From: Chlamydiales bacterium
GTDB lineage: Bacteria; Chlamydiota; Chlamydiia; Chlamydiales; SM23-39
Direction of reading: 5' to 3'
Assembly (NCBI GenBank): GCA_965261025.1
Contig: OZ253438.1
Location: forward strand, 270,001 to 302,000
Length of the DNA: 32,000 nt
The position numbers were made by a program, and so were the translations under genes. A model generated the notes under the pieces. That model ran no database searches. It worked only from the letters and a program-made list of their open reading frames with translations, and had not been told where the DNA came from. Positions within the stretch are counted from its first letter, which is position 1. Every line of letters begins with the position of its first letter. Positions 10,649 to 30,220 of this stretch are shown here, piece by piece.

Positions 10649-10722
<74 letters not shown>

Positions 10723-12876: not shown

Positions 12877-14082
12877 ATGGGTTCTCTTATGAGGAGAATA
12901 TATAAAACCATGACCTGTAAAAATTGGATTTTCCTTTTTTTTCTTTTCCTAGCTCCTATTTTTTCTGAGGAAGAGCTAGCAGTTATTCTTACTCGTTCTG
13001 ATGAGATTCCTTGTGAATCTTTAGAAGAAGGGTCAGATGCTTACTACGAAGGATACATACAAGCCTTAGTAGATATGCACTATTACGAGTTTCGGGTAAT
13101 TGTCATTGCTAGGAATCAAAATGTTTGGCTTGGGAATCTTCCCAAAAACAAGCTGATTTCTAAAAGTATTCTTTCCTTTGTAGCAGAGATTCCCGGGGTC
13201 AAAAAAGTAAAGGAATTGAAAGGGGAAGTGTTAGAAAAAGATAAGAAGATGCATGAAAAATATGAGTCTTGCTTCAAACCAAAGGGTATTTGGTTTCCCC
13301 AGACTACAGAGCTTTTTTTACCCATGGTAGCCAATCCTAGGCAGGTTACGAATTCTTTAGGATATAGGCAAAATGACTCTGTTGTAGGAAGAAAAGCGGT
13401 TCCTATCTCTTTAGGGGATAACTTTCCCATTTATCGTTGGATTGATGTAGGTAGTCATGGAGATCTTCAGGTGAGTCTTGAATCGGGAATTTGGGCTGTT
13501 TTTGATTTGGATCCACCAAAACCTAGAATTAATTCAGGAACTGCTTTGGTAAATACCGACTTCTATGTAGGGATTCCTCTGGCGTATGCCTCTGATGCTT
13601 GGTCTTTTCGTTTTCGTCTCTATCATATCTCTTCTCATTTAGGGGATGAGTTCTTGGTAAATAATCCGGGATATCTCCGGAAAAACCCCAGTTTTGAAGC
13701 AATAGATCTATTTGTTTCCTACCAGCTTTTAGGCTCTTTAAGAGTTTATTTAGGATTAGGGGATATTTTGCATAGTGATCCTTCTTTTCATCTTAAACCT
13801 TTCTATCTAGAATATGGAGGGGAATACCGATTTTTAGGACAGAAGTTTCACAAACAAAAAATGTACGGGACTTTTTTTGCCGGTGCCCATTTTCGTACCT
13901 ATCAGTATCTTGATTATGACTTTGATGGAACCTTTGTAGCTGGCTATGAGTTTAGTAAATTGCAGGGAATTGGCAGGAAATTCCGGATTTTTGCTGAATA
14001 CCACAAGGGTTTTTCTGTAGAAGGACAATTTATGAAAGAAAGAGCCCAATATTGGAGTTATCAGTTCTCCTATAACTTTTAA
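12877..14082 (+). CDS. Secreted or outer-membrane protein, DUF1207-like
   Basis: 401 aa with a signal-like N-terminus. 'FPQTTELFLPMVANPRQ' and 'YHISSHLGDEFL', together with the size, recall the chlamydial DUF1207 family. The C-terminus ends in aromatic residues. Confidence 0.55.
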   Translation: MGSLMRRIYKTMTCKNWIFLFFLFLAPIFSEEELAVILTRSDEIPCESLEEGSDAYYEGYIQALVDMHYYEFRVIVIARNQNVWLGNLPKNKLISKSILSFVAEIPGVKKVKELKGEVLEKDKKMHEKYESCFKPKGIWFPQTTELFLPMVANPRQVTNSLGYRQNDSVVGRKAVPISLGDNFPIYRWIDVGSHGDLQVSLESGIWAVFDLDPPKPRINSGTALVNTDFYVGIPLAYASDAWSFRFRLYHISSHLGDEFLVNNPGYLRKNPSFEAIDLFVSYQLLGSLRVYLGLGDILHSDPSFHLKPFYLEYGGEYRFLGQKFHKQKMYGTFFAGAHFRTYQYLDYDFDGTFVAGYEFSKLQGIGRKFRIFAEYHKGFSVEGQFMKERAQYWSYQFSYNF

Positions 14083-15448: not shown

Positions 15449-17164
15449 ATGAAATGGGCTGTATTTCTCCTTCTTTCTCCTTTTTTTCTTTTGGCAAAAG
15501 AGGCTTCTTTTTTTCAGGAGGATCTTCGAAGAATAGAAAAGCTTCTTTTTATAGAAAGTTTTTCTACCGCCTTGAAGATTTCTTCTCAACTTTTAGAAAA
15601 ATATCCAGAAGAAAAAGAAGTTCAATCTATTCATATCCAGAGTCTTATAGGTATAAAAGAGCCTGCAAAAGCTTTAGAGTGTTATCTGAGGTGGGAGCAA
15701 AACTTTAAAGACTTTACTCTTTTAGAAAAGATTTGCTGGGCTTTTTTAGAGGAAGGGGTTTCTTCTTCTCAATACGCTGTGCAGATAGCCTCTTTAATGG
15801 GAGCTTTTTTTACCCAGGATGCAAAGACAGTTCTCATCTTGTTAAAAATGATGGATAGCTCTCATGCTGCAGTTCGTTCTTTAGCCGTGCAACTTTCTGG
15901 ATATTATGGTGATCAAAAGTTGAAAGAAAAAATAGGGAGCCTTGTCAAAAAAGAAAATGCCTGGCCTGTCCGCCTTGAATTGATTCAAGCTTTAGGAAAG
16001 CTTGGGATAAAAAAAGAGAGAAGCTATTTAGAAAAACTTTTAGAAAAAGAAGAAGGGGTTTTAGAAGAGAAAATGGCAGCAATTCAAGCCCTTGTAGATA
16101 TGTATGAGGAGGTTCCTTGGGAAAAAATTTCTCCTTTGGTGAAAAGCCGAAGGGCATATACCAGGATTTTAGCATGTCGGTTGATTTCTCATTTTTCTAT
16201 TAAAAAGGCAAGGGGATATCTAGTTCCTCTTTTTTACGATGAACACCCTCATGTTCGAATAGAGGCTTTAAATGCTTTTGCTCTTACCTTCTTTTCTGAA
16301 ATGGATCAGGAAGAAGAAAAAATAATAAGAAGACTTGCTCACGAAAAGCATCCTTTTGTTGCTATTACAGCTAGTTGGATTTTATTTTTAAAAAATCCCA
16401 AACAAGAGTTTTTGCTCAAAAGGTGGTTGGAAGCAGAAAAGAAAGAAAATAGGTGGGTAGCTTCCGCAGCTCTTTCAACAGCAGGACAAAGAGGAATTTT
16501 GTTAGCAAAAAAAATGATCCAAGAAAGTAAAGATCCCTACGTTCGGGTAAACCTTGCTTTAGGTCTAATCCGCCATGGAGAAAAAGGAGAAGAGGAAAAA
16601 GAGATTTTAGTAAAAGCCCTTAACAAAGAAGGGCAAAGATGGATGAGAAGTAATGTTTCGAATTATTTATTTCCCATGTTAGTTCCTTCGAACTTAGTTC
16701 GAGAAGGCTCCCACTTTTCTGTTCCAGAACAGGAAGATCAAAAGGCTCGTTTTGAGATGATATCCCTTCTTGCTTTGCTAGGGGACTGTAGAGCAGAGCA
16801 GTATATTCATAGCCTTTTAGCAAAAAATTCCCTTCTAACAAAGGAGGCTCTTTTCTTTCTTTGGAAGGAAAAACCTTTCTTTTCTTCAGAACTGATAAAC
16901 CTTCTTCTGAAAGAGGGAAAAGAAGAACAAAGGCTGCAAAAAGCTCTTGTTTTAGCGATTTTTGCCAAAGAAGAAAGAGCTTTACAAGAGCTGGAAAAAG
17001 CGTATTTTTCTGCAAGCTATGAACAAAAAATTCAGATTTTGGAAGCGATGTTTCAAATAGGCAGAGTAGAGAATGCTTCCTTTTTCAAGAAGGTACTGCA
17101 AGAGCCTTTTTTGACACTTCGCATTCTTGGAGCTTCTGCTTTTTTACAAGCTATAAAAAGATAA
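15449..17164 (+). CDS. HEAT-repeat protein with an N-terminal signal sequence
   Basis: 571 aa. 'MKWAVFLLLSPFFLLAKE' is signal-like. There are repeated 'D..(H/W)..VR..A..AL' HEAT/PBS-lyase-type units. Confidence 0.65.
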   Translation: MKWAVFLLLSPFFLLAKEASFFQEDLRRIEKLLFIESFSTALKISSQLLEKYPEEKEVQSIHIQSLIGIKEPAKALECYLRWEQNFKDFTLLEKICWAFLEEGVSSSQYAVQIASLMGAFFTQDAKTVLILLKMMDSSHAAVRSLAVQLSGYYGDQKLKEKIGSLVKKENAWPVRLELIQALGKLGIKKERSYLEKLLEKEEGVLEEKMAAIQALVDMYEEVPWEKISPLVKSRRAYTRILACRLISHFSIKKARGYLVPLFYDEHPHVRIEALNAFALTFFSEMDQEEEKIIRRLAHEKHPFVAITASWILFLKNPKQEFLLKRWLEAEKKENRWVASAALSTAGQRGILLAKKMIQESKDPYVRVNLALGLIRHGEKGEEEKEILVKALNKEGQRWMRSNVSNYLFPMLVPSNLVREGSHFSVPEQEDQKARFEMISLLALLGDCRAEQYIHSLLAKNSLLTKEALFFLWKEKPFFSSELINLLLKEGKEEQRLQKALVLAIFAKEERALQELEKAYFSASYEQKIQILEAMFQIGRVENASFFKKVLQEPFLTLRILGASAFLQAIKR

Positions 17165-17222
17165 ATTCTCTATTTAATATTTATCAGTTGAACTGATATC
17201 ACGAGAAAAAAGACCTTTTTGT

Positions 17223-17855
17223 ATGGAACCTTTGGGCTTAATAGAAGCTATTGTATATATCAATCTCAAGAAACGAGATGATCGAAGAAAAAGTCTTTTA
17301 CAAGAGCTAAAAAAATTAAGAGTAAACCTCAATAAGGTGTTTCGAATAGAAGCTTTTGAGGAAAAGGAAAATGGGACCAGAGCTTGCGTAAGGAGTCATA
17401 TTCAAGCTTTGGAGCTGGCTTATTATAAAAAATGGAAGAGTGTTTTAATTTTAGAAGATGATGTTATTTTTTCTTTAGACCCAGAAAAAATCTCTAGGTA
17501 CATCGCTTCTTTTCTTAGGCATTTTCAGGATAAATGGGATGTTTTTTTCTTGGGAACGGAAATGGTTGCTTCTAAGCCAACAGACCATCCTTTTTATTTT
17601 CAGATTCTCTTTTCTATAAGAGCTCATGCCTATTTGGTAAATGGTCCCTATGTAAAATCCTTACGGGATTTTTTCATTAGGGTATATAGATCTATGCAGA
17701 AGGATGAAAGCCACGCTATTTCCTTAAAAAAAGGGCTCGATAAAGAATGGGTTCATCTTCAAATGAAGGATCGATGGTTTTGTGGAAAATCTATAGTGGC
17801 CTTTCAAAAAAAGGATTTTAGCGATATTGATCAAAAGTTAAAAAATCAGAGGTAG
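17223..17855 (+). CDS. Glycosyltransferase family 25 (LOS/LPS beta-glycosyltransferase-like)
   Basis: 'YINLKKRDDRR...FRIEAF...CVRSHIQALELA...VLILEDDVIF' is the GT25 pattern. Confidence 0.7.
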   Translation: MEPLGLIEAIVYINLKKRDDRRKSLLQELKKLRVNLNKVFRIEAFEEKENGTRACVRSHIQALELAYYKKWKSVLILEDDVIFSLDPEKISRYIASFLRHFQDKWDVFFLGTEMVASKPTDHPFYFQILFSIRAHAYLVNGPYVKSLRDFFIRVYRSMQKDESHAISLKKGLDKEWVHLQMKDRWFCGKSIVAFQKKDFSDIDQKLKNQR

Positions 17856-17949
17856 CTCTTTTATATGTTTATGAGGAAAGGTGGGAACACCACCCGCCTT
17901 GTGCAGTAGGTAGTTGATACCCTTTCCCTTTACACTTTGCTTAAAGGAT

Positions 17950-19317
17950 TTACCAGTTTTCAGATTTTTTAAAGTATTGCCAAATCCCTTTTAGTCTCCA
18001 GTATATATAAAGCTGTCGGAATCCAAAATTTTCTGAAAAAGAATACCAAAGAAGGCGAAGGATTTGTCGCAAGTATTGATACCTCCGAAAACTGGTGATC
18101 TCCATAGAAACAGAGACAAAGCTCAAAGCTATAGTTAGTCCCCAAGAAGCAAGAAGATAAAGGAGCGGAGCAATCCAGGGAATAACCCCTATGATAAGCC
18201 CTATAATCATCATGAGAAACCCTACCACTTCAACGACAGGCTCGAGCATTTCTCCAAAGAGATAGTAAGGATAAACAAGTAACCCTGCGAGACCATATTT
18301 GGGATTGAAAAGGAGGTATTTATATTTTACAAGTCCCTGAATCAACCCCTGATGCCACCTTGCCCGTTGCTTGGATAGAGCTTTTACGGTCTCAGGAACT
18401 GTTGTCCAGGCAACAGGATCTGGAATAAACAAAATGGGTCGACGAATTCCTTTTTTAGCTTGTTGTATGAAAAGACGTAAGGTAAACTCAAAGTCCTCGC
18501 CAATGGAAGTAACATCGAATCCTCCCGCTTCTAAAACGGCTTTTCTATCGAAAAGACCAAAGGCACCAGAGATAATGAAGTTGCCTCCTAAATAGTTCCA
18601 TCCAAGCCTTCCATATAAAAAAGAACGTAAGTATTCTGCTACTTGAATTCCAGGAAGATATTTTTTAGGGATATCTATTTTTTCAATTTTTCCCTCCTTG
18701 AAGGTACAGCCATTTAAAATACGAAGAGTGCCCCCTTGCCCGACTACATTATCGTGTAATAAAAAAAAGCGAGTCATTTTTAAAAGCGCGCTTTTTTCCA
18801 GGTAAGTATCTGCATCGATGATAGCTATTAAAGAAGAGATGCTATAGTTGATCCCTGCATTATTGGCGTCACTTTTTCCTCCCTGCTCTTTATCAATGAC
18901 AAACAAGTTAGGGACTAAATTAGAGCGGTAAAATCCTTTTACTGGCTTGCTTTTTAAAGTAGGGGGAGTTTGGGGAAGGACGGGATAAAGTTCATAGGTG
19001 TCTTTTAGTCTTTGTAGGGAATCGTCGGTAGAGCCATCATTTACAATGATAATTTCTTTAGAAGGGTAGGAAACCTCTAAAATCCCTTCAATAAAGCCGC
19101 AAAGAGACTCTCCTTCATTATGAACCGGAATTACAATAGAAATAGAAGGAAAAGAGTCTGAGGAAGCTATAACTTGGTCATTTTCTGATAGGGTTTCTTT
19201 AAAACGCCTTCGAATGGCGGGAATGGAGAGTGCTATGAGGAGAATATAAAAAGAATTTATGATTAAAAAGTAGATAACAAAATAAAACCCTGTGGTGCTA
19301 ATGATATGTTCTATCAT
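17950..19317 (-). CDS. Processive family-2 glycosyltransferase (PgaC/IcaA/NodC/cellulose-synthase-like) with flanking TM helices
   Basis: 'IVIPVHNE', 'VNDGSTDD', 'IDADT', 'GEDFEFTLRL' and 'QRARWHQG' (QxxRW) are present. There is an N-terminal TM segment and about four C-terminal ones. Confidence 0.85.
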   Translation of the reverse strand: MIEHIISTTGFYFVIYFLIINSFYILLIALSIPAIRRRFKETLSENDQVIASSDSFPSISIVIPVHNEGESLCGFIEGILEVSYPSKEIIIVNDGSTDDSLQRLKDTYELYPVLPQTPPTLKSKPVKGFYRSNLVPNLFVIDKEQGGKSDANNAGINYSISSLIAIIDADTYLEKSALLKMTRFFLLHDNVVGQGGTLRILNGCTFKEGKIEKIDIPKKYLPGIQVAEYLRSFLYGRLGWNYLGGNFIISGAFGLFDRKAVLEAGGFDVTSIGEDFEFTLRLFIQQAKKGIRRPILFIPDPVAWTTVPETVKALSKQRARWHQGLIQGLVKYKYLLFNPKYGLAGLLVYPYYLFGEMLEPVVEVVGFLMMIIGLIIGVIPWIAPLLYLLASWGLTIALSFVSVSMEITSFRRYQYLRQILRLLWYSFSENFGFRQLYIYWRLKGIWQYFKKSENW

Positions 19318-19392
19318 AAAAAATAGTGCAAAAAGACTCTAATTCTTTTAATAAAGAAATAGAGAGGGTTTCACAACAAAAATGTAGTTTTT

Positions 19393-20886
19393 ATGGGAAA
19401 AAGATTTTTTCTTTACTCCATCTGGCTTTTTGCTATTTCTCTGTTGATTGTCCAGATATCCTTGGGAGGATATTTTTCCTGGGATGTGGGCCGCCTTGCA
19501 GAAAAAGGGATCCAGGTTCTTCTTAATGGAGCTATTATCAGCCTCCTCATTTTTGCTGTAAGTGGGGCCTTATTTCACTTTGTAGTTACTCAGAAAAAAA
19601 ATTTTTTCCTTTTAGGGGGGGCTTTTTTTTGCATTTCTTTTTTAGAAGTTTTTGTTTTTTTTCTCGTAGAAAAATGGATTTCTTTAGGAATTCCTTACCA
19701 GGAACAAATAACTTTTGCTATTTGGTTTAGCCTCTTTTTACAAAAAATTTTCCTTTTTTTGGGAGGACTTTGGTTTTGCTTTTGTGGGAAAGAAACCTCC
19801 ACTAAGGTGTGTTGCACTACTTTTGCTGTATTTATGTTTGCCTTCCTAGGCTTTACTATGTATTTCGGAATCTATCAAAATTATTTTTTATTTTTATATC
19901 AAAAAATTTCCCCTCTTCCAGGTATCTATTTTTCTTCTACGCTTTTTTTTCTTCTTTTTTTACTTCCTGCTTTAGTAAGGCTTTTTTTCTCAGAGAAGTC
20001 CTATTTTTTCCTTTCCGTCTTTCTTTTTTTTATTCCGCAGTTGATAGGAGAAAATACCTTTTTTTATTTTGCCGGGAAAAATTTTGATCAAGCTTTGGCT
20101 CTTTTTTTTCTATTAGTTTTGGTCTCTACCATCCCGTTGATCTTGGGCATTACGCTAGACAATTTTTATCTGTTTCGTCAGCAGCAGAGGATAGAGGCTT
20201 TTTCTGTCAGAGAATCCGAAGGAAAAACCCGTTTCATTAATGCCTTAACGCACGAGATTTTAAACCCTTTAAATGCGGTGATGGCCTATAACCAACTTCT
20301 TTCGGAAGGGCTAGAAGGAGACTTGAATGCTGTGCAGAAAGATACTATGGGAAAGTCTATGAAAGCTTGTGAGAGACTACAAAACCTGGTAGAAGAGCTC
20401 TCCACTTTGTCCAAAGCAGAGCAAGGGAAATTAGGGTATAACTTAGAAAAGCTAGATATAAGAAAAGAATGGGAAGCTTCTTTGCCCGTGCTACAAGAAA
20501 TGGGAAAGAAAAGAGAGATCGAAGTTCAGCTGCAAGGGGAATCTAAGTCTTTTATGATAAAAGCAGATAAGAGGAGATTTTCCCAGGTAGTTCTAAATCT
20601 TTTCCTATATCTTTTTCATTTTTTTGAAAAGACTCAAATTCTTATAGAGATAAAAGAAGCTCAAAGCCTTTTTACAGTCTTAGTGAAAGGAAAAAAACTT
20701 TCACAGATAGAATCAGTAGATCTTTCTTCCATAAACCGGTTCGCTCTCCTTTTTTCAGAGGTGAACGTGCGCCCTTTTCTCTGGATCTCCCTTTGTGAGA
20801 AGCTCTTTAAAGAGCAGGGAGGGGAACTTATAGTAAAACAGGAAAAGGAGGGGCTTTGTTTTTATGGGAAATTACAAAAAGTATAG
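19393..20886 (+). CDS. Polytopic sensor histidine-kinase-like protein with an intact H-box and a degenerate ATPase domain
   Basis: The N-terminal domain has about 8 TM segments. The HisKA motif 'FINALTHEILNPLNAV' is present. The N-box position reads 'VVLNLFLYLFHF'. There is no DxGxG or GxGLG box. Confidence 0.65.
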   Translation: MGKRFFLYSIWLFAISLLIVQISLGGYFSWDVGRLAEKGIQVLLNGAIISLLIFAVSGALFHFVVTQKKNFFLLGGAFFCISFLEVFVFFLVEKWISLGIPYQEQITFAIWFSLFLQKIFLFLGGLWFCFCGKETSTKVCCTTFAVFMFAFLGFTMYFGIYQNYFLFLYQKISPLPGIYFSSTLFFLLFLLPALVRLFFSEKSYFFLSVFLFFIPQLIGENTFFYFAGKNFDQALALFFLLVLVSTIPLILGITLDNFYLFRQQQRIEAFSVRESEGKTRFINALTHEILNPLNAVMAYNQLLSEGLEGDLNAVQKDTMGKSMKACERLQNLVEELSTLSKAEQGKLGYNLEKLDIRKEWEASLPVLQEMGKKREIEVQLQGESKSFMIKADKRRFSQVVLNLFLYLFHFFEKTQILIEIKEAQSLFTVLVKGKKLSQIESVDLSSINRFALLFSEVNVRPFLWISLCEKLFKEQGGELIVKQEKEGLCFYGKLQKV

Positions 20887-20889
20887 GTT

Positions 20890-23205
20890 ATGGGAGAAGT
20901 AAAAACCTTTTTTTTTTCAGGGCAAAATGGGCAAGTAGGAGAACATCTGAAGCAGCTTGCCGAGAAAAAAGGAATTTCTCCTGCTGGTAAAGAGGAAGAG
21001 GCTTCCCTCTATTTTTTAGAAACCTCTGACGTAGAGGGAGCTTTAAAATTTTTTTCTGAAAAAGAGAATATAAAAGGTATAAAAAGCGTAATCTGCTCTC
21101 CGGAATCCTACCCTTCTTTTGTTGAGGCAAAAAAAGAAAAAAAGTATCAGGGAGTTTTCAAGCAGCTTTTAGAAGAAGAAGTTCTACAATTTTTTTTCTC
21201 CTTGTGTTTATTGCCTAAGTATTCAGAAAAAGCAGATATGGAAGTTCTTTTTGAAGAGTATAAGTGGAGTTTGCTTGACAAGTATTATATTTTAAGGGAT
21301 TTAAGAGAAGGTTTTTTACAAAATAAAAAAAAAGAGGATCTAGAAGCCTTAAAAAAAGCTGTTCATAAGCTTGCGGGAAATTCAGGTTCTTACGGTTTTT
21401 TGAAGGTAAGTGAGCTTTGTAAAAAAGAAGAGCAAGATCTTGAAAAAGGGCTACAAGAAATAGATAAGAGGGACTGGGGTAAAGAGCTTCCCTCTTTCTT
21501 TTCTTCTTTACTTGCAGCTTTTTCAGAATTTTCTCCTCAAAAGCAGGCAGAGCCGGAAAAGGAGGTTTTAGAAAAAAAAGAGGGTACGAGTCTATATCTC
21601 ATTGATGATGACGTAGATTTTACCAATTTAATTAAGCAAGTAGCTCTTTCTAAGAATATAGCAATAGAAGTAGAAAATAGCTTTTTAGCTGCAGAAAAAA
21701 AGTTAGCAGATGCAGGATTTCAACCGAGGATCATTTTATTTGATCTGGTTTCTGAAAAAGAAAGTCTTTCTGGGCTTGATTTGGTACAAAAGTATACAGA
21801 GTCGCATCCGCAAAAAGGAGATACTGTTTTAGGTATTCTTTCTGCCCAAGGGGAAGCTTCCTTTCGTTCTGAGGCGGTGAATAAATCGATAGATCTTTAT
21901 TTACAAAAACCCATTTCTCCAGAGGGTCTTTTAAGCCAGATTGAACTGATACTTTCTAATAAATTAGAAGGGGGAGGTTCTCTTTTTTTAATAGATGATG
22001 ATTCTGATTTTTGCCAGTTTTTTACAAAAGTTTTTGAAAATACCCCTTGGAAGGTAAAAACGGCCTCTTCTTGTAAACAAATTTTCCAAGATTTAGAGAG
22101 TTTTTCCCCTGATCTTCTCTTTTTAGATATTGAAATGCCAGAAATAGACGGAATCCAAGCCTTGAAAATGGTGCGATCTGATGCACGGTATAATTCCTTG
22201 AACGTATTTATTGTGACAGCAAAAAAGGATCCGGAACATCTTCGTTTTTTAGCTCAGCTGGGTATACAAGGGTTTCTGTTAAAACCTATAGAGCCTAAAG
22301 AGCTTCAATCCCAAGTAAGGGCCTTTTTTCAAAAACAAGAGGCTCTGAGTATTATTTATAAAAAGGATCCCTTTTTAGGGGTCTATCAGAAGAGAGCTTT
22401 AGAAAGTTTTTTAAAGACCTTAATAGTTCAAGAAAAAGAATTTGGGATTGTGCTTTTTCAGGTAGAAGAATTTTCCCCTGAGAAGAAAGAAAAAGAAAAG
22501 TGGAACTATTTTACAACTTCTTTGAATCAATTCTTTCCTCAAAAGGATCTTGCAGGAGTGTGGGCCGAAAAAGAGATAGTATTAGTTTTCTCTACTTTTC
22601 CTAGAAAACTTCTCTACCGTCTTGTCCATAGCTTCCTTCAATTTTTAACAGAGGATGAAAAATTAAAAAGTTTGTTCGAAGTATTCAAAATATACACCTC
22701 GATTATTTTTTACCCAGAAGAGGGGAAAAATATAGTGGAGCTTATAGAAAAAGGGAAAAGACTGATTCAAGAAAAAAAAGGCGAGAAAAAGTGGGGGGTT
22801 TTTGGGGAAGAAGGACTTTTTGGAACAAAAAGAACAGGAAAAAAGGCCTTAATGGTCTCCTCTGATGAAGAAATTCGAACCGTATTACGCTTTTATTTGC
22901 AAAGAGAGCATTTTATTCTTATTGAAATACCTACAGGAAAAGAGGGTCTTTCCTGGATCCATAAGAAGATGTTTGAAGAAAAAGTCGATTTCATCATTTT
23001 AGATATGGATCTACAGGATATTAGTGGGATTCTTTTTTTGGAAAAACTAGCCACATTTTCCGGAGAAAAAATTCCCTTAATGGTGTTGTCCTATCATAAT
23101 AGGGATAAGGAGATACTGGAGATCTTCTCTTTAAAAAACATCATCTATATTCAAAAGCCTTTTAGTTTAGAAGCTTTTTCTAGGAGGTTAGAGCAGCTTT
23201 TATGA
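20890..23205 (+). CDS. Multidomain phosphorelay protein: HPt - REC - REC - degenerate GGDEF - REC
   Basis: HPt: 'AVHKLAGNSGSYGF'. REC modules: 'LYLIDDD...ILFDL...QKP', 'LFLIDDD...LFLDIEMPEIDG...VTAKKD...LKP' and 'IILDMDLQDISG...QKPF'. The GGDEF-like block has 'DLAGVWAEKEIVLVF' in place of 'DL...YGG(D/E)EF'. Confidence 0.7.
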   Translation: MGEVKTFFFSGQNGQVGEHLKQLAEKKGISPAGKEEEASLYFLETSDVEGALKFFSEKENIKGIKSVICSPESYPSFVEAKKEKKYQGVFKQLLEEEVLQFFFSLCLLPKYSEKADMEVLFEEYKWSLLDKYYILRDLREGFLQNKKKEDLEALKKAVHKLAGNSGSYGFLKVSELCKKEEQDLEKGLQEIDKRDWGKELPSFFSSLLAAFSEFSPQKQAEPEKEVLEKKEGTSLYLIDDDVDFTNLIKQVALSKNIAIEVENSFLAAEKKLADAGFQPRIILFDLVSEKESLSGLDLVQKYTESHPQKGDTVLGILSAQGEASFRSEAVNKSIDLYLQKPISPEGLLSQIELILSNKLEGGGSLFLIDDDSDFCQFFTKVFENTPWKVKTASSCKQIFQDLESFSPDLLFLDIEMPEIDGIQALKMVRSDARYNSLNVFIVTAKKDPEHLRFLAQLGIQGFLLKPIEPKELQSQVRAFFQKQEALSIIYKKDPFLGVYQKRALESFLKTLIVQEKEFGIVLFQVEEFSPEKKEKEKWNYFTTSLNQFFPQKDLAGVWAEKEIVLVFSTFPRKLLYRLVHSFLQFLTEDEKLKSLFEVFKIYTSIIFYPEEGKNIVELIEKGKRLIQEKKGEKKWGVFGEEGLFGTKRTGKKALMVSSDEEIRTVLRFYLQREHFILIEIPTGKEGLSWIHKKMFEEKVDFIILDMDLQDISGILFLEKLATFSGEKIPLMVLSYHNRDKEILEIFSLKNIIYIQKPFSLEAFSRRLEQLL

Positions 23206-24281
23206 GTCGTTGGTTTTTTTTAGAGAAATTAATTTTTTTTGAATTTGTCATTCTTTTCTTTTTTATTTCTTTGATCCTCTTTGTCTCTTTTTTTTATGAA
23301 ATTTCTAGCAAGATAAAGCAAAGAAAAAAAAAGGTGATCCAAGAAATATTAACCCACTTTCTAGCGGAGCAGATTTATGTAACGGATATTGTAATACCTG
23401 AGTATTTAAGAGATTTTGAAATTTTTATCAGCGTTATAGAAGAATTTGATATAAAAATGACGAGCCTTTCCTGGACTCTTATGAAGGAATGGGTGATTCA
23501 TGACATCTTTAAAGAAAAGCTAAGAAAGACGCTCTCATCTAGCTTTTGGGCGAAAAATCTTCTTGCTTTAAGAGCGCTAAATCTTTCTCCTCGAGTTTCT
23601 TTCTTAGAGAAGGTAAAACCTTTTTTAGAAAAAACCAGACCCATTCTTCGATTTTCCGCTGTACCCATTTTAATCCAGATGGGGACAAAAGAGGCTATTT
23701 ACAGTGTAATAAAAGCCATGGCAAAAGAGTCTAAAACAACCCAGTATCCCTATAGAGATAACCTTTTAAAAGCCCCTGTTTTTATATATAAAATCTTACA
23801 AGAGCTTTACCACAGTTGTCAGGAAAGAGAGATGCGTCTTTGTTGTTTAAAGGTCTTATCTACAAAAGTAGGTTTTTTACAATATACAAGTTTAGAGAAA
23901 GATTTACATGGTGAAGACTTAGAAGTAAAATGGTGGGCTATTAGAGCGCTAGCAAATAATCCCTCAATGGAGATTTTTTCTTTTTTGAAAAAGCAGGTAG
24001 AGGACAAAGACTGGAGAATCCGTTCTCTTTCCTGGCAGATTTTAGGGAGAAATAAGCTTCATGAAGATTTGGGCTTTTTTACAAAGGGGTTAGAAGATGA
24101 GCACTACTGGGTTCGTATTTGTGCCGGATGGGCTATAAAGGGGCAAGGAGAAGAAGGGATAAAAATTTTACAGAATCAGACACAGGAAAAACAGACAAGC
24201 TTTTCTGTTTCACAATATGTTTTACAGGCTTCCTATGCAGAATTTGAAAAGAATTTGGAAACCATGTCAGTATACTTGTAA
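23202..24281 (+). CDS. Membrane-anchored HEAT-repeat protein
   Basis: N-terminal TM 'LIFFEFVILFFFISLILFVSFF'. C-terminal repeats 'DLEVKWWAIRALA', 'DKDWRIRSLSWQILG' and 'DEHYWVRICAGWAI'. Overlaps the upstream gene by ATGA. Confidence 0.6.
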   Translation: MSRWFFLEKLIFFEFVILFFFISLILFVSFFYEISSKIKQRKKKVIQEILTHFLAEQIYVTDIVIPEYLRDFEIFISVIEEFDIKMTSLSWTLMKEWVIHDIFKEKLRKTLSSSFWAKNLLALRALNLSPRVSFLEKVKPFLEKTRPILRFSAVPILIQMGTKEAIYSVIKAMAKESKTTQYPYRDNLLKAPVFIYKILQELYHSCQEREMRLCCLKVLSTKVGFLQYTSLEKDLHGEDLEVKWWAIRALANNPSMEIFSFLKKQVEDKDWRIRSLSWQILGRNKLHEDLGFFTKGLEDEHYWVRICAGWAIKGQGEEGIKILQNQTQEKQTSFSVSQYVLQASYAEFEKNLETMSVYL

Positions 24282-24284
24282 TGT

Positions 24285-25373
24285 ATGGATTTTTCTTGGA
24301 AAAAATATTATAGGACTCCCTCTAAAAAGCAGGAAAAAATTGCTGACAAATACAATAGGGAAGGAAAAGTTGCTTGCTTTGTTTTTGCAGGAGGAATGGC
24401 TTCTCGCTTAAATCTTTTTGGAGCGAAAGGGTGTTTGCCTGTGACTCCTTTTAAGAAAAAGAGTTTTTTTCAGATTTTTTTTGAGAGGGTAAAAGCTTTT
24501 GAAAAGCATTTTACTACTCAAGTAGAAGTGGGTATTATGCTTTCTTCAAAAAATGAAAAAGAAACACGTGTTTTTTTACAAAAGAAGCATTATTTTTCCT
24601 TTCCCCCTTCTCAGATTACCTTTTTTTTGCAACCAGATTTTGTTTGTTTAGATGATAAGGGAAAAAAGCTCTCCTCAAAAGCACCTTCTGGTAACGGAGC
24701 GGCAATCTTTTTATTGAAAAAGAGTAAATGGCTCTCTTTTTTGCAAGAAAAGGGGGTAGAGTGTGTTCATTTTATCCCTGTGGATAACCCTTTGATAGAT
24801 CCCTTAGATAGCGCTCTTACAGGCTCTCTTATAGAAAACCAGTGGGATGTAGTCATTTCGGGGGTAAAAAGGAAGAAAAGAGAAGAAAACTTGGGGGCGC
24901 TTTTTTTTGAACAAGATAGGCTTAAAATCAGAGATTACATGGAGCTTTCCCAAAGAAAGCAGTATCTTCCTGTATTAAGTACAGGGCAGTATTGCCTTTT
25001 TCTTCCTTGGCTTATTTCTGCCATAAAAAAAGCAAAAATGCCGATTCATTGGGTAGAAAAAAAGCTAACAAGAGCGGGAAAACAGGTGCGTAAAGGGGAG
25101 ATGTTTTTCTTTGATCTTTTTCAAAATAAGGGAAAAGTAGGGGTTTTATGTCGCAACCGCCGGCTTTTTTTTTCCCCTTTTAAAAGAGAAGAAGAAATAA
25201 AAAAGATGCAGCGAGATTTTCTAAAGAGAGATAAAGCGCTTTTAGAAAAAATCTCTGGAAAAAAAGGAAAGGGCCCCTATGAATTGGGCGCCTGTTTTTT
25301 TTATCCTTCCAAAAAGTTAATTCAAAGATGGAGGAAGAAAGACTTGCCGGAAAAAGGATATATTCCCTATTAG
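24285..25373 (+). CDS. UDP-sugar pyrophosphorylase family protein (UDPGP/UAP1-like, divergent)
   Basis: 'FAGGMASRLNLFGAKGCLPV', 'PSGNGAAIF' and 'HFIPVDNPL' parallel the L(A)GGxGTRLG / GNGG / VDN motifs. Confidence 0.6.
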   Translation: MDFSWKKYYRTPSKKQEKIADKYNREGKVACFVFAGGMASRLNLFGAKGCLPVTPFKKKSFFQIFFERVKAFEKHFTTQVEVGIMLSSKNEKETRVFLQKKHYFSFPPSQITFFLQPDFVCLDDKGKKLSSKAPSGNGAAIFLLKKSKWLSFLQEKGVECVHFIPVDNPLIDPLDSALTGSLIENQWDVVISGVKRKKREENLGALFFEQDRLKIRDYMELSQRKQYLPVLSTGQYCLFLPWLISAIKKAKMPIHWVEKKLTRAGKQVRKGEMFFFDLFQNKGKVGVLCRNRRLFFSPFKREEEIKKMQRDFLKRDKALLEKISGKKGKGPYELGACFFYPSKKLIQRWRKKDLPEKGYIPY

Positions 25374-25397
25374 CCTAAGCCAGGCTGTTAAACTCTT

Positions 25398-26411
25398 TTA
25401 AGGAAAAGAGGGAATGGGAGGAGAAGGATTTCCCTCTATTACAATCCAGTCTTTTAAGATAATATCAGAATCGAGTCTTTTTCTAGATAAAAACCAGGGG
25501 GATCTAGCTATTACTTTTTTCTTTTTATAAGGATTTAAATAAGCACCCCACCAAGAAAAGGTAGAGGGAGAGGTAATGACACTTTTACAAAGACTCATAA
25601 GGTAAAGATCGTGATGAGCTTCTTCATTCTCTATGAATAAAAGCTTTTTTCCGGGAAGATTGAGGTTTTTTTTACACCAAGGAATTGAATCAGAAAAAAT
25701 AATAAAAAGAGAGTCTTTCTCGAAAAGATCTGCTGCTTTTTGATAGTATAAAAGATCAGGGGCTGGAAAATTTTTATAAATAGAAGGACCTTCTAGTAAG
25801 AAGTCCTTATAAAAAGTGCGTACATGGAGAGCCACTGTTTTGGGGTGTTTGAGTAAAAAGCCATATTTTCCCTCCAGATAGGAAAGGATCTTTTCCGATG
25901 GAGCAAATAGCTTCAAGATTTTTTCTTTGTGTTTGATGAAATGCTTCTCTGACTCATAAAAACCAGATAGTCGCATGTTTGGTTTAAAAGCAATAGGAGA
26001 AAAAGGGGCAAAGACTCTCTCTTTATGTTTATGTCTAATAAGGTATTTATGAATTCTTTTTACAGGCAGCCTGAAAAACACTTCTTCCATATTTTTAGCA
26101 AGATTTTGTTTTTCTATTTCTAAGCATTTTTCTGGGAGGAAGTATTCGGCCTTATTTTCCAAAGCAAGAGCAATGGTTGTAGCCATTTGAAAGAGCTGAT
26201 TTCCTAGCTGTCCTTCCGGCTTTATAGTAACAAAGGGAACGTGTTTTTCTAAAAAGGGGGATATAGGATCTTGGAATCTTTTTTGATAAAAAGGGGTAAT
26301 AGAGAAAAAAATCCAAGAAAAGCAAAAAAGGAGAAAAACAAGATAGTTAAAAATGGTGGTTTCCTTTTGCTTTTTTTCAAAGTTGCAGTGTAATTTGTGG
26401 ATAAGAAACAC
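25398..26411 (-). CDS. Glycosyltransferase family 11 (alpha-1,2-fucosyltransferase-like) with an N-terminal TM anchor
   Basis: 'GQLGNQLFQMATTIALA', 'ALHVRT', 'IIFSDSIPWCKKN' and 'DLYLMSLCKSVITSPSTFSWWGAYLN' correspond to the four GT11 motifs. Confidence 0.8.
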   Translation of the reverse strand: MFLIHKLHCNFEKKQKETTIFNYLVFLLFCFSWIFFSITPFYQKRFQDPISPFLEKHVPFVTIKPEGQLGNQLFQMATTIALALENKAEYFLPEKCLEIEKQNLAKNMEEVFFRLPVKRIHKYLIRHKHKERVFAPFSPIAFKPNMRLSGFYESEKHFIKHKEKILKLFAPSEKILSYLEGKYGFLLKHPKTVALHVRTFYKDFLLEGPSIYKNFPAPDLLYYQKAADLFEKDSLFIIFSDSIPWCKKNLNLPGKKLLFIENEEAHHDLYLMSLCKSVITSPSTFSWWGAYLNPYKKKKVIARSPWFLSRKRLDSDIILKDWIVIEGNPSPPIPSFP

Positions 26412-27074: not shown

Positions 27075-27740
27075 TCAAGTAGAAGTTTTTTTGGATGAGA
27101 AAGGATTGAGCCTTTTAGGTAGCCATTTTTGAGGATTCAGAGTTTTTAAAAGAGGCTTGATTCCTAAACTGTGAAGAGCTGATTTAAGTATTTCTTTCAA
27201 AATAGCAGACTCGATTTCCCCTATAGGAAAGTCTTCACTAGAAATATCTTGAAGCTTTAGGCTTTTTATTGGGGGGTATTTCTTTTGATCTCCTTTATGG
27301 GAAGTGATCGTTACTTCCAGATTTTCCAATAAAAGAGCTTGAATAAAGATAGATTTCTTTCCCGTATTTTTCCCTGTATCTTCTTGGAAAAAATGAGACC
27401 AATTAGAAAGAGTTTCCTTTTCATCAAAAAATTCTACATCCAAAGAGATATTTTTTAGATGAACAGAGGCAATTTCTATCCTATTTTTCCAAAGGGTATG
27501 GAGAGGGAGATTTATAGAAAAAAACTCTACGGAAAAAGCTTTTTCTGTCTTAGAGCCCGGGGGATTGTAAATAAGGAAGTTTTCTAAGATAAAGCCCTGG
27601 TTTCTATTCCAAGAAAGAGAGCCTATGCTCACTTGAGTATTTAGCTCCTTTGATAAGTAGAGTTCAACAAGAAACCTTTTGCCCATCCATAATCCCCACA
27701 AAAGAGCAAAAACTATAAAAACCCAAACCACCTTTTTCAT
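27075..27740 (-). CDS. Membrane-anchored protein, AsmA-N-terminal-like, paralogue of 27829-28545
   Basis: N-terminal anchor. 'IYNPPGSKTEKAFSVEFFSINL...NWSHFFQ' parallels 'IANPVRSKTRTAFSAKVIEADY...NWGRIFQ' in the divergent neighbour. Confidence 0.4.
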   Translation of the reverse strand: MKKVVWVFIVFALLWGLWMGKRFLVELYLSKELNTQVSIGSLSWNRNQGFILENFLIYNPPGSKTEKAFSVEFFSINLPLHTLWKNRIEIASVHLKNISLDVEFFDEKETLSNWSHFFQEDTGKNTGKKSIFIQALLLENLEVTITSHKGDQKKYPPIKSLKLQDISSEDFPIGEIESAILKEILKSALHSLGIKPLLKTLNPQKWLPKRLNPFSSKKTST

Positions 27741-27828
27741 AAGAAAAATAGAAAAACCCCACTATTTCACTACTGAATAAAAGAAGGAATTGTTATTAGT
27801 CAAATTAAAAATAGAGAATAGGTTTTTT

Positions 27829-28545
27829 ATGATCTTTTTTAAGAAAAAAACTCCTTTGTTTATATTTATTTTGGTTTTAGTTGTTTTTGTGTTTTTGTGG
27901 TTTATAAAAGCTCCTATTATGGCTTCTTATTTATCTCATAAGATGAAAGTAAGTGTTTCTATGCTTACGGTTAAATTAAGACCTACTACCTTGAAGATTC
28001 GTAGGTTCCATATAGCAAACCCTGTAAGATCAAAAACCCGGACAGCTTTTTCTGCCAAAGTGATTGAAGCAGATTATTCTTTGCAAGAGCTTTTTAGCAC
28101 TCCTTCGATAATCGATAGAATTGTATTGGATAATGTCTTTGTAGGAATAGAATTTTATAACCCCTTGGGAACAGATACCAATTGGGGTCGTATTTTTCAA
28201 AATATGAAAGAAAAACAGGCAAAAGGGAAAAAAGAAAAAGGCTTTACTATAAAAACGTTAATTATAAAAAATTTAGACCTAAGTATATATGGACTCGGTA
28301 TTGGGGGTGTTTTAGGACAAGCACAGAAGAAGCATTTTTCTCAGCTTGTTTTTCACAATATCCGAAGTAGTGATGGGTTTCCCACAGGACCTATTTTACA
28401 GACTATTTTCGATTCTTTAAATATTGAAAACTACTTGAAGAACTTCCTGCAGCCTGAAAAAGAGCTGAAGGAAATTTTCAATCCTTTTAAAAATTTTGGA
28501 TACAAAGAAAAACCGCCCAGAGTATCTCCTCAGGGCGGCTTTTGA
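27829..28545 (+). CDS. Membrane-anchored protein, AsmA-N-terminal-like, paralogue of 27075-27740
   Basis: ATG 27829 is preferred over TTG 27790. It has the same architecture and shared motifs as the divergent neighbour. Confidence 0.4.
   Translation: MIFFKKKTPLFIFILVLVVFVFLWFIKAPIMASYLSHKMKVSVSMLTVKLRPTTLKIRRFHIANPVRSKTRTAFSAKVIEADYSLQELFSTPSIIDRIVLDNVFVGIEFYNPLGTDTNWGRIFQNMKEKQAKGKKEKGFTIKTLIIKNLDLSIYGLGIGGVLGQAQKKHFSQLVFHNIRSSDGFPTGPILQTIFDSLNIENYLKNFLQPEKELKEIFNPFKNFGYKEKPPRVSPQGGF
28508..28543 (-). terminator. Rho-independent terminator for groESL, potentially bidirectional
   Basis: The stem ccgccc (28513-28518) pairs with gggcgg (28533-28538). It is flanked by an A-run upstream and a T-run downstream, so each strand reads hairpin followed by U-tract. 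Confidence 0.55.

Positions 28546-28567: not shown

Positions 28568-30220
<1,653 letters not shown>

Follow-up and report, generated by a model that had tools for sequence, protein, structure and literature searches.

Do eight consecutive genes of a chlamydial genome, lying within the 32,000-nucleotide stretch analysed here (the window), form a single signalling-controlled glycan system, as the initial annotation of this DNA proposed? The coordinates and strands of all eight open reading frames (Table 1) were recovered exactly as that annotation had given them, all eight genes have the domains that it had named, and the spacing of the same-strand run at 19393-25373 was reproduced: 3 nt separate HK from RR (20886 to 20890), RR and HEAT2 share an ATGA overlap that can be read directly in the sequence (23205 and 23202), and 3 nt separate HEAT2 from UDPGP (24281 to 24285). 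Operon structure was inferred from this gene spacing, and G+C content is uniform over the region. The synthase gene diverges from the operon, a layout also found at the related loci L081, L084 and L085, and the AT-rich region between them is presumably a shared promoter region, although it is no more than a candidate, as a promoter scan of the locus gave no signal above shuffles and a terminator scan was likewise uninformative. As set out below, only part of the eight-gene cluster behaves as one system. The reading we favour, and consider reasonably likely, is that 17950-25373 is the chlamydial copy of a widespread synthase-dependent polysaccharide module, built on a receiver-HEAT-GT2 core, gated by the receiver and making a HexNAc product.

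Table 1. Features of the locus, with positions in the window.
Feature	Position	Strand	Description
HEAT1	15449..17164	+	571 aa, signal-peptide-bearing HEAT/TPR-like solenoid; Pfam HEAT_2, 76.7 bits; system membership unproven
GT25-like glycosyltransferase	17223..17855	+	210 aa, EDD motif; Pfam GT25; system membership unproven
GT2 membrane synthase	17950..19317	-	455 aa; Pfam Glycos_transf_2, Glyco_trans_2_3, Glyco_tranf_2_3
Divergent intergenic region, GT2 versus HK-RR-HEAT2-UDPGP operon	19318..19392	.	75 bp, AT-rich
Polytopic pseudo-histidine-kinase (HK)	19393..20886	+	497 aa; Pfam HisKA only
Phosphorelay protein (RR)	20890..23205	+	771 aa, Hpt-REC1-REC2-GGDEF*-REC3; Pfam Hpt and three Response_reg
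RR Hpt domain	21295..21465	+	aa 136-192; His retained (VHKLAGNSGSYG); Pfam and alignment
RR REC1 and REC2	21589..22317	+	REC1 aa 234-345, REC2 aa 364-476; residue columns
RR degenerate GGDEF domain (GGDEF*)	22351..22827	+	aa 488-646
RR REC3, C-terminal receiver	22837..23202	+	aa 650-771
HEAT2	23202..24281	+	359 aa, TM-anchored; Pfam HEAT_2, 48 bits
UDP-HexNAc pyrophosphorylase-like enzyme (UDPGP)	24285..25373	+	362 aa, eukaryote-type; Pfam UDPGP, 62.7 bits; last operon gene
GT11 protein (alpha-1,2-fucosyltransferase family)	25398..26411	-	337 aa; Pfam GT11, 85.8 bits; membership unproven

The conserved core consists of a receiver-ending phosphorelay protein, a membrane-anchored cytoplasmic HEAT protein and the GT2 synthase. 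Among the 72 genome loci with enough upstream sequence, which come from Gemmatimonadota, Chloroflexota, Nitrospirota, Actinomycetota, Cloacimonadota, Bacteroidota and other phyla, a HEAT gene lies directly upstream of the synthase in 68, often abutting or slightly overlapping its start (by 4 nt between the called genes of L083), and in 65 the HEAT gene is itself abutted by a gene whose final domain is REC3-like. Sampled genes upstream of HEAT encode REC in 40 of 41 cases, Hpt in 23 and GGDEF in 19, and the minimal form is Hpt-REC only, which makes the receiver the constant element and GGDEF not. The core module is therefore not specific to chlamydiae; it is conserved across many phyla, with the three genes present in hundreds of species of bacteria, and its recurrence in dozens of unrelated genomes means that the clustering is no chance arrangement. 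Judged by gene order, the synthase has HEAT2 as its obligate genomic partner, and the partner that matters appears to be the HEAT protein together with the C-terminal receiver rather than the GGDEF domain. A search for natural fusions of REC with HEAT, or of HEAT with GT2, found none. HK, RR, HEAT and GT2 are kept together in all six chlamydial loci, RR orthologues occur in all of these as well as in many phyla, and seven chlamydial synthases are monophyletic in a neighbour-joining tree. The UDP-GlcNAc-pyrophosphorylase-like gene is conserved in the closest chlamydial clade, with the UDPGP orthologue directly behind the HEAT gene in L081 and L085.

The remaining three genes behave differently. 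Homologues of HEAT1, GT25 and GT11 were found within 10 kb of the synthase in 0 of 86 fetched loci (tblastn, E ≤ 1e-3), and metagenome pattern scans gave no HEAT1 or GT11 relatives. Within Chlamydiota, synteny holds for HK, RR, HEAT2 and GT2, and for UDPGP in the closest clade, but HEAT1, GT25 and GT11 do not share it, and the eight genes do not make up a unit that is conserved as a whole. It is unlikely that all eight nevertheless form one system making a poly-GlcNAc- or chitin-like polymer that carries galactose (GT25) and fucose (GT11) and is served by two HEAT envelope proteins. The genes are closely packed and uninterrupted by any unrelated gene, and accessory transferases at the locus are the rule in chlamydial relatives, which always have an extra GT4, one of them also carrying a GT10 fucosyltransferase-family gene two genes past the GT4. 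HEAT1, for which hydropathy gives an N-terminal signal-like segment, sits where relatives carry a periplasmic TPR/beta-barrel exporter protein, but on the opposite strand and with no detectable similarity to the TPR protein of L081 (E=1.4). The GT25 match is weak and partial (30.2 bits over only 47 residues), with no NCBIfam or PDB match for the same product, and GT11 has one N-terminal TM helix by hydropathy (residues 20-38); the GT11 and GT25 genes belong to separate transcription units. With no homologues of GT25 or GT11 at related loci, adjacency is left as the basis for the fucose or galactose decoration suggested earlier. We regard HEAT1, GT25 and GT11 as lineage-specific neighbours outside the conserved system, which may modify or handle its product.

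In the synthase a cytoplasmic GT-A domain lies between an N-terminal TM helix and several TM helices at the C-terminus, and the motifs are intact (D94, D168xD170, E274-D275 and QxxRW as Q317-R-A-R-W321) and invariant in an alignment of 16 family members. Its best NCBIfam family is PgaC_IcaA (TIGR03937, E=3.7e-33), where it scores 115 bits and the cutoff is 422, and it shares 29% identity with E. coli PgaC over the catalytic domain. Identity to members of its own family across phyla is 40-55%, which marks it as a distinct sister family of PgaC and no orthologue. The AF2 model (pLDDT 86.9) has as its best PDB folds Chlorella virus HAS (TM 0.71, 462 aligned columns), BcsA, XlHAS1 and Chs1; the HAS and BcsA matches span nearly the full length at 14-18% sequence identity, and the BcsA alignment runs through QxxRW into the downstream TM helices. 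As modelled, GT2 would be a processive enzyme of the hyaluronan/cellulose-synthase type. Its intact motifs, fold matches and gene neighbourhood bear out the earlier proposal of a processive-type, signalling-linked GT2 in a chlamydial genome.

Whether such an enzyme secretes a polymer depends on its surroundings. In every chlamydial relative the synthase is adjoined by an outer-membrane TPR/beta-barrel protein and a GT4; the TPR protein lies behind the synthase and has a beta-barrel-type C-terminus ending Y-x-F, and the GT4 is convergent with the synthase. In Gemmatimonadales a YaiO-type barrel is fused to the synthase or lies behind it (PF19413, 25.1 bits). No TPR/beta-barrel or GT4 homologue and no YaiO-like barrel was found in the 32-kb window, so a secreted polymer is less certain here than in the relatives. 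QxxRW enzymes include the oligomer-forming NodC, to which GT2 has a weak NCBIfam match; weak Glyco_transf_21 matches occur among family members, and the membrane mannosyltransferase PcManGT is also among the fold matches. Together with the missing export component, these matches could indicate a short or non-secreted product, such as a NodC-like oligosaccharide, a periplasmic glycan or a glycolipid headgroup. We consider this distinctly unlikely, as the best near-full-length folds are those of the polymer-translocating HAS and BcsA, in two phyla the related loci pair this synthase with outer-membrane barrels, and an exporter could lie elsewhere in the genome.

The nature of the product is suggested by the last operon gene. 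All 11 PDB matches of UDPGP are UDP-GlcNAc/HexNAc pyrophosphorylases (best 3.3e-19), and since such an enzyme at the operon end would supply UDP-HexNAc locally, the product would most likely be a HexNAc-containing polymer or oligomer. Taken with the PgaC/IcaA resemblance of GT2, this makes the HexNAc polymer first put forward a reasonable guess; the product is probably HexNAc-based, a chemistry read from family resemblance only.

HEAT2 has one N-terminal TM helix by hydropathy (residues 10-28), followed by a basic cluster (KIKQRKKK), a pattern that holds across the HEAT family. Its AF2 model (pLDDT 87.4) has fold matches of scaffold type only. The solenoid most likely faces the cytoplasm, as predicted from this basic cluster, which would put it on the side of the membrane where the soluble RR and the GT domain lie. 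Of the two HEAT envelope proteins described previously, the signal-like segment of HEAT1 and the TM anchor of HEAT2 are thus both present, but the predicted cytoplasmic orientation of HEAT2 does not fit an envelope role and is a further point against a single eight-gene system.

How the synthase is controlled was addressed from the residues of the two signalling proteins. In RR, alignment shows AEKEI in place of the GGDEF motif and PQKD in place of the I-site RxxD. The domain is still recognisable: the excised segment matches Pfam GGDEF at E=0.009, two chlamydial RR orthologues have a recorded Pfam GGDEF match, and a profile of the five closest chlamydial GGDEF* segments matched only diguanylate cyclase/GGDEF PDB chains (best E=4.3e-5). 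The suspicion that this domain is catalytically dead is therefore upheld at the level of sequence. All Chlamydiota have lost the cyclase motif, and many Gemmatimonadaceae have it in the altered form GGxDF. A degenerate GGDEF domain might still act as a c-di-GMP receptor that activates the synthase, as in PelD, PssE and YdaK, and such receptors of GT2/GT4 synthases are well known, the one from Listeria keeping its RxxD I-site and binding c-di-GMP (PMC4125290). Non-chlamydial RR family members keep GGDEF/GGEEF and RxxD, and chlamydial clade B keeps RxxD (REQD, RSRD). Classical c-di-GMP control is nonetheless very improbable here: PQKD lacks the Arg, the I-site is likewise absent from the other clade-A chlamydial RRs, and a review describes the enzymes making c-di-GMP as absent from Chlamydiales (PMC10745434). 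The GGDEF domain is missing altogether from many family members, which are Hpt-REC only, so c-di-GMP cannot be the universal link.

The phosphorylation route is also altered. HK has at least seven hydrophobic segments, is orthologous over its full length to the L081 kinase and keeps the His of its DHp domain (THEILNPL), but no HATPase_c was detected by Pfam even at E ≤ 10, and a six-way alignment shows the N, G1 and G2 boxes replaced. By these residues the ATP-binding domain is dead, and the label HK-like was apt. In sister lineages the kinases keep the ATP-binding domain but carry S or Y in place of the His. In RR, Hpt, REC1 and REC2 retain all phospho-chemistry residues, each receiver having its DD pair, phospho-Asp, S/T and Lys. 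REC3, the most conserved part of RR across phyla with near-invariant columns, has lost its acidic pair here (DDD to SSD) and retains Asp, Ser and Lys, which makes it probably a pseudo-receiver.

With several signalling residues degenerate, the module could be a partial vestige in this reduced 1.4-Mb genome. At its fullest, this view holds that a decaying module has lost its exporter, GT4 and signalling chemistry, and that regulated production of a surface polymer has ceased. The dead kinase domain, the lost GGDEF motif, I-site and REC3 acidic pair, and the absence of TPR/beta-barrel and GT4 homologues from the 32 kb are all consistent with it, and the complementary defect of the sister kinases suggests relaxed constraint on phosphotransfer. 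We judge it quite improbable, because none of the five core ORFs is truncated, translational coupling is kept, every invariant synthase catalytic residue is retained, and the phosphorelay chemistry of Hpt, REC1 and REC2 is intact. Moreover, SSD is common to three of the five clade-A lineages and the DD pair is missing in all five; as these lineages are ~50% apart in synthase identity, the REC3 change looks like a stable derived state rather than ongoing decay.

For the favoured receiver-gated module we propose the following mechanism. The PgaC/HAS/BcsA-like GT2 would both polymerise and translocate the glycan, and the HEAT protein (~350 aa), anchored in the inner membrane by a single helix, would act as an adaptor whose cytoplasmic solenoid keeps the C-terminal receiver pressed to the synthase on its cytoplasmic face, so that the state of the receiver gates polymerisation. 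In other phyla this state would be set by phosphorylation, with a further contribution, in many of these lineages, from an active REC-GGDEF cyclase within that protein. In this lineage the c-di-GMP arm appears dead and the phosphorylation arm crippled, which is why control is probably conformational, with the polytopic membrane sensor as its source. Another possibility is that some unlinked kinase works by phosphotransfer via the DHp His, Hpt, REC1 and REC2, which are all intact. Control is thus probably exerted through the predicted receiver-HEAT-synthase contact rather than c-di-GMP. A limited full-text literature search found no published description of the module, in line with the undescribed status first suggested for it, and it is apparently uncharacterised although widespread.

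Among known systems, the closest comparison is with PgaABCD/IcaADBC, which make poly-beta-1,6-GlcNAc. Shared features are a membrane GT2 with D, DxD, ED and QxxRW, for which this is the best curated family match, a synthase encoded alongside a small membrane partner that it would need and, in the chlamydial relatives, a PgaA-like TPR and beta-barrel outer-membrane protein. GT2 nevertheless scores well short of the family cutoff, a PgaB-type deacetylase is lacking, and in place of the two-helix PgaD/IcaD an upstream gene encodes the partner, a cytoplasmic HEAT solenoid of 350 aa. In PgaC-PgaD c-di-GMP binds at the interface of the two proteins, whereas here control would lie with an operon-encoded phosphorelay protein. 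BcsA-BcsB and the hyaluronan synthases share the fold of GT2 (Chlorella virus HAS, E. coli and Rhodobacter BcsA and Xenopus HAS1 are top matches), and its size is HAS-like although identity is low; unlike BcsA-BcsB, the module has no PilZ domain and no BcsB. The E. coli yaiO-yaiX-yaiP-yaiS cluster, in which yaiO adjoins the GT2 gene yaiP, recalls the YaiO-type barrels of Gemmatimonadales, but YaiP is distant from the synthase (27% identity over the N-terminal half, E=5e-13) and the cluster has no HEAT or REC genes.

The REC-REC-GGDEF order of RR resembles PleD, and its non-chlamydial orthologues keep the cyclase and I-site motifs as PleD/WspR do. RR differs in its extra N-terminal Hpt and C-terminal REC, in the translational coupling of its gene to the HEAT-GT2 pair, and in the chlamydial and Gemmatimonadaceae changes to the cyclase motif described above. 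PelD-PelF, PssE-PssC of Listeria and YdaK-YdaM of B. subtilis likewise encode a catalytically dead GGDEF domain with a polysaccharide synthase. PelD and YdaK are degenerate GGDEF receptors that keep the RxxD I-site, bind c-di-GMP and control their synthases; in the RR of the window, by contrast, the I-site is lost, and the conserved element beside the module's synthase is a receiver domain together with a HEAT protein.

Relatives of the GT2 synthase were encoded in at least 587 stretches when one genome per species was scanned, and the best 80 of these loci fall in Gemmatimonadota, Chloroflexota, Nitrospirota, Actinomycetota, Cloacimonadota, Bacteroidota, Eremiobacterota and Chlamydiota. With a HEAT2-derived HMM, a homologue of about 350 aa was located in essentially all loci. 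Gene order was counted in the 72 loci with 1.1 kb or more of sequence ahead of the synthase: the HEAT gene adjoins the synthase on the same strand in 68, often abutting or slightly overlapping its start (by 4 nt between the called genes of L083), and the remaining four are chlamydial, with the HEAT gene nearby. A gene ending in a receiver like REC3, the C-terminal receiver of the window's response protein (RR), abuts the HEAT gene in 65 of the 72. Among 41 sampled upstream genes, REC was present in 40, Hpt in 23 and GGDEF in 19, and the smallest version of the module is Hpt-REC (310 aa), HEAT and GT2; the constant triad is therefore receiver, HEAT and synthase, with GGDEF optional. Natural REC-HEAT or HEAT-GT2 fusions, sought as a sign of interaction, were not found, and long ORFs suggesting them in high-GC loci were start-codon artefacts. 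Source annotations carry generic names only, HEAT2 relatives being called 'HEAT repeat domain-containing protein', and homologue searches with the single HEAT2 sequence or a 28-sequence profile returned few true relatives. An exhaustive search of representatives was dominated by giant multi-HEAT proteins, so that family size cannot be read from it; about 50 of its top 150 matches are single-stretch proteins of 337-376 aa. In the full-text literature searched, an incomplete library, a HEAT/REC-coupled GT2 synthase is nowhere described.

In the window, the initial annotation had put forward eight genes as a candidate regulated glycan system. The eight ORFs, with their positions and strands, were confirmed, as was the spacing of the four-gene run at 19393-25373 (a 3-nt gap, an ATGA start/stop overlap and a 3-nt gap). 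The domains of each gene also agreed, with Pfam giving HEAT_2 twice, GT25, GT2, HisKA, Hpt with three receivers (771 aa), UDPGP and GT11; HisKA is the sole Pfam domain of the sensor, the GT25 match is weak and partial (30 bits, 47 residues), and the membrane predictions were supported by hydropathy. Joint conservation did not hold up: no homologue of HEAT1, GT25 or GT11 lies within 10 kb in any of the 86 loci fetched around GT2 relatives (tblastn, E≤1e-3, at which very divergent HEAT1 or GT25 could escape), and pattern scans of a metagenome collection found no relatives of HEAT1 and GT11. That all eight genes form one system making a decorated polymer is a rival reading of low probability, with these 86 loci against it, and HEAT1, GT25 and GT11 are more probably optional, lineage-specific additions.

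Positions of genes in the window and of selected orthologues in related chlamydial loci
Feature	Location	Strand
TPR-containing ORF, longer paralogue	4035-6170	+
HicB-like/HTH ORF	7380-7805	+
TPR-containing ORF, shorter paralogue	8692-10209	+
tRNA-Met (CAT), sole RNA gene found in the window	10649-10722	-
DUF1207 protein	12877-14082	+
HEAT1	15449-17164	+
GT25	17223-17855	+
GT2 synthase	17950-19317	-
Polytopic sensor kinase (HK)	19393-20886	+
Response protein (RR), Hpt-REC1-REC2-GGDEF*-REC3	20890-23205	+
HEAT2	23202-24281	+
UAP-like enzyme	24285-25373	+
GT11	25398-26411	-
Short AsmA/DUF748-like ORF	27075-27740	-
Short AsmA/DUF748-like ORF, divergent from the preceding	27790-28545	+
Cpn60/GroEL-family gene, just downstream of the cluster	28568-30202	-
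UAP-like gene, L081	L081:2270-3376	
UAP-like gene, L085	L085:3677-4906	
Orthologous polytopic kinase, L081	L081:8221-9867	
Orthologous polytopic kinase, L084	L084:8280-9878	
Orthologous polytopic kinase, L085	L085:8344-9888	

GT11 has an N-terminal hydrophobic anchor (residues 20-38). Such an anchor occurs in eukaryotic FUT1/2, and characterised bacterial GT11 enzymes are, as far as is known, soluble; the window protein may be eukaryote-like or host-directed and not work with the synthase. Promoter and terminator scans of the window did no better than shuffles. Anti-phage defence was considered and rejected as a reading, since PADLOC matched only HEAT1, to a generic HEAT-ARM repeat model (28 bits), and REC2 of RR, twice and below 20 bits; the synthase, HEAT2, kinase and transferases drew no match.

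The synthase (455 aa) carries the complete motif set of the BcsA/HAS/Chs/PgaC class (D, DxD, (T/G)ED, Q(Q/R)xRW), with D94, D168xD170, G-E274-D275 and Q317RARW321 invariant in a 16-sequence family alignment. Its alignment with BcsA brings the catalytic motifs into register and runs across QxxRW into the downstream membrane helices. An AF2 model (pLDDT 86.9, pTM 0.87) has helices at 311-331, 343-376, 382-410 and 416-449, and model, fold matches and hydropathy concur on post-catalytic TM helices in a channel-type architecture. The best fold matches are Chlorella virus hyaluronan synthase (TM 0.71, 462 columns), BcsA, Xenopus HAS1 and yeast Chs1, those to HAS and BcsA spanning near-full length. 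Grouping with non-processive lipid-carrier transferases, which the initial annotation had named as counter-evidence, was not observed; polymer-translocating synthases match best. Several Pfam GT2 models match the protein. PgaC/IcaA (TIGR03937 equivalog) is the nearest curated family, yet the score is 115.1 bits against a cutoff of 422.3, and BcsA (TIGR03030, 41.2 versus 699.1 bits) and NodC (TIGR04242, 35 versus 550 bits) also fall below cutoff. The PilZ domain expected of a BcsA gave no Pfam match. While identity to E. coli PgaC is 29% and confined to the catalytic domain (residues 57-324), relatives outside Chlamydiota share 40-46% over the full length, which marks GT2 as a distinct sister family; the closest sequences, at 45-55% identity, come from Simkaniaceae, Rhabdochlamydiaceae and further Chlamydiota MAGs. 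The family is a slowly evolving sister group to the PgaC-type synthases. Neither a PgaD/IcaD-type small partner nor a PgaB/IcaB deacetylase was found in the window or related loci.

The order HK-(REC)-RR-HEAT beside GT2 is common to six distinct chlamydial loci, divergent in L081, L084 and L085, as in the window, and collinear in L082 and L086. Seven chlamydial synthases form a single clade in an NJ tree and G+C is uniform across the region, and recent horizontal acquisition was rejected on these grounds. Called genes were read in five chlamydial loci (L081, L082, L084, L085 and L086), and in every one a TPR protein of 517-942 aa follows the synthase, with a conserved C-terminal region of about 340 residues and the terminus Y-x-F, an outer-membrane barrel signature; beyond it, each of the five has a convergent GT4. 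In L003, whose gene content otherwise lay outside the reading, a barrel-protein homologue is upstream of the synthase. Among the ORFs of the 32-kb window, which is part of a 1.42-Mb contig, there is no TPR/barrel protein or GT4 homologue, hence no such outer-membrane component encoded with the synthase, and the position is occupied, on the opposite strand, by HEAT1 and GT25, in which no similarity was detectable. Three candidates for the missing exporter were rejected: HEAT1 as a divergent counterpart of the TPR protein (dissimilar to it, E=1.4, and with a C-terminus that is no β-barrel), the two TPR-containing ORFs (mutual paralogues with divergent C-termini lacking a barrel), and the DUF1207 protein, which is outer-membrane-barrel-like but is linked to the synthase in no relative. 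Gemmatimonadales appear to export through a YaiO-type barrel, either fused to the synthase or encoded just after it. A product that is non-secreted or oligomeric would suit the gene content of the window, and the best fold matches of GT2, polymer-translocating synthases, point the other way; the making and translocation of a polymer by GT2 is putative, with indirect support from the outer-membrane barrel genes coupled to its orthologues.

The fused Gemmatimonadales synthase (P0086, 711 aa) ends in about 250 aa of YaiO-type outer-membrane β-barrel (PF19413); fusions occur in six fetched loci (L006, L007, L011, L013, L014 and L028) and separate genes in L021 and L026. This topology is odd, joining an inner-membrane synthase to an outer-membrane barrel. 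A signal-peptide-like stretch, MARKGFGKPSVAALLALCLATPCLGQ, lies at the junction, and an internal translation start may be used. Of the rejected candidates in the window, the DUF1207 protein (217 bits) carries a signal peptide and ends in SYNF, as is typical of an outer-membrane β-barrel. The paralogous TPR-containing ORFs are 88% identical over 376 aa with unrelated C-terminal stretches of ~100-130 aa; the longer has a signal- or TM-bearing N-terminal extension, the shorter begins at the shared core, and their layout, with the HicB-like/HTH ORF between them, resembles polymorphic toxin/effector cassettes with exchanged C-terminal modules.

Proteins of the HEAT2 family have one N-terminal TM helix, then a basic cluster, then the solenoid (alignment and AF2 model), and the fold matches scaffold proteins only (alphaRep, PP2A A subunit, armadillo). 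The positive-inside pattern puts the solenoid on the cytoplasmic side of the membrane, where the soluble phosphorelay protein and the GT domain also lie. Non-chlamydial HEAT partners share a near-invariant motif, S-x-x-W-(W)-R-R-L-x-A-x-R (HEAT2 family alignment A3), at which a ligand or a partner may make contact. At this position (residues ~113-125) the window protein reads SSSFWAKNLLALR; the Arg pair is gone, in a lineage that has also lost GGDEF and the I-site. A second conserved motif of the HEAT family is D-x-x-W-x-V-R.

The signalling arm is degenerate to uneven degrees. The DHp domain of HK is recognisable (HisKA, 48.5 bits), with the phospho-accepting His at the canonical site in THEILNPL. 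HATPase_c gave no match in the window HK even at E≤10: the N-box Asn is Tyr, and G1 and G2 are gone. Orthologues in L081, L082, L084, L085 and L086 retain the N, G1 and G2 boxes. Clade B kinases (L082, L086) are canonical; in clade A (window, L085, L084, L081, L003), the L081, L084 and L085 kinases keep the ATP-binding domain and carry Ser or Tyr in place of the His. The degeneracy is thus complementary, the window having the phospho-His and a dead ATP-binding domain and three relatives the reverse; phosphorylation of the neighbouring protein's Hpt by the ATP-binding domain, as in CheA, would account for the three relatives but not for the window. In RR, Hpt, REC1 and REC2 keep all phospho-chemistry residues, both receivers having the acidic pair, phospho-Asp, Thr/Ser and Lys. 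REC3 of the window keeps Asp, Ser and Lys, with SS for the acidic pair (VSSDEE); that position reads SSD, SSD, CSD, GSN and SSD in clade A and DDD in clade B. These losses would fit a vestigial module, and against it stand the invariant synthase motifs and the intact Hpt, REC1 and REC2.

Once excised, the region between REC2 and REC3 matched Pfam GGDEF at E=0.009, the PDB matches of a profile of the five closest chlamydial segments are all diguanylate cyclase/GGDEF chains (best E=4.3e-5), and RR orthologues in two further chlamydial genomes have a recorded Pfam GGDEF match; by these profiles the segment is a true but degenerate GGDEF domain. The GG(D/E)EF active-site motif is an established requirement for cyclase activity, and since the window reads AEKEI there, its domain cannot be a cyclase. 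GGDEF/GGEEF and the RxxD I-site are kept in Nitrospirota and some Gemmatimonadota relatives, Gemmatimonadaceae have GGxDF, and all Chlamydiota have lost the motif. The I-site (RxxD, five residues upstream of the GGDEF position) is PQKD in the window, also missing in L085, L084, L081 and L003, and retained in clade B. Classical c-di-GMP reception could draw on the I-sites of clade B and of other phyla; in the window it is opposed by PQKD. According to a review, c-di-GMP-synthesising enzymes are absent from Chlamydiales (PMC10745434), consistent with the loss of the GGDEF arm.

The UAP-like gene directly follows the HEAT gene in the window, L081 and L085. Its product matches Pfam UDPGP (62.7 bits), all 11 of its PDB matches are UDP-GlcNAc/HexNAc pyrophosphorylases, and, in keeping with the UDPGP fold, its glycine-rich nucleotide-binding loop AGGMASRL aligns with AGGQGSRL of 3oc9. 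No NCBIfam equivalog matched; UDP-HexNAc specificity is predicted from the PDB matches. The enzyme resembles eukaryotic UAP1/AGX and not bacterial GlmU, its best PDB matches being from Entamoeba, yeast and human, a hint that the gene may have passed from a eukaryote to chlamydiae long ago. That the synthase is intact and comes with a UDP-HexNAc supply of its own points to a glycan so far unrecognised in Chlamydiota, one that might be relevant to the environmental-stage envelope or to contact with the host. We are aware of no processive exopolysaccharide synthase reported from this phylum, whose members are generally regarded as lacking c-di-GMP signalling; no chlamydial one was described in the full-text literature searched, the library being incomplete.

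How these parts might work together can be outlined from evidence that is entirely in silico, from gene, sequence and model comparison: domain content, motif status, the synthase and HEAT folds, gene order across phyla and the identity of the UAP-like enzyme. The HEAT solenoid would bridge the C-terminal receiver and the synthase, receiver state would gate polymerisation through this bridge, and the operon's UAP-like enzyme would feed a HexNAc-based product. Control in this lineage is probably conformational, from the polytopic sensor; alternatively, an unlinked kinase could act by phosphotransfer, for which the DHp His, Hpt, REC1 and REC2 are intact. We tentatively put forward, as a possibility with the odds against it, that REC-HEAT-GT2 is a new, phylogenetically broad synthase-dependent class (at least 587 stretches in species-representative genomes) in which no nucleotide second messenger takes part and a receiver gates the synthase directly via a HEAT adaptor tethered to the membrane, and that in one chlamydial clade the relay is phosphorylation-independent (pseudo-kinase, pseudo-receiver) and still drives a HexNAc polymer. 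If so, these intracellular bacteria would make a HexNAc polymer not previously known from them. The paradigm of c-di-GMP-controlled biofilm matrix production is the synthase-dependent system (cellulose, PNAG, alginate, Pel), and a widespread family whose synthase is wired directly to a receiver and a HEAT adaptor would introduce a new mode of regulation, as well as a handle on matrix or envelope polymers in the poorly studied Gemmatimonadota, Nitrospirota and Chloroflexota. Overall, the module appears to work as synthase-dependent exopolysaccharide systems do, and by curated thresholds it lies outside Pga, Ica, Bcs and NodC, whose accessory genes are absent from it. While the I-site of the PelD/PssE/YdaK type is not present in the window, the module shares with Pel, Pss and Yda the pairing of a dead GGDEF domain with a synthase.
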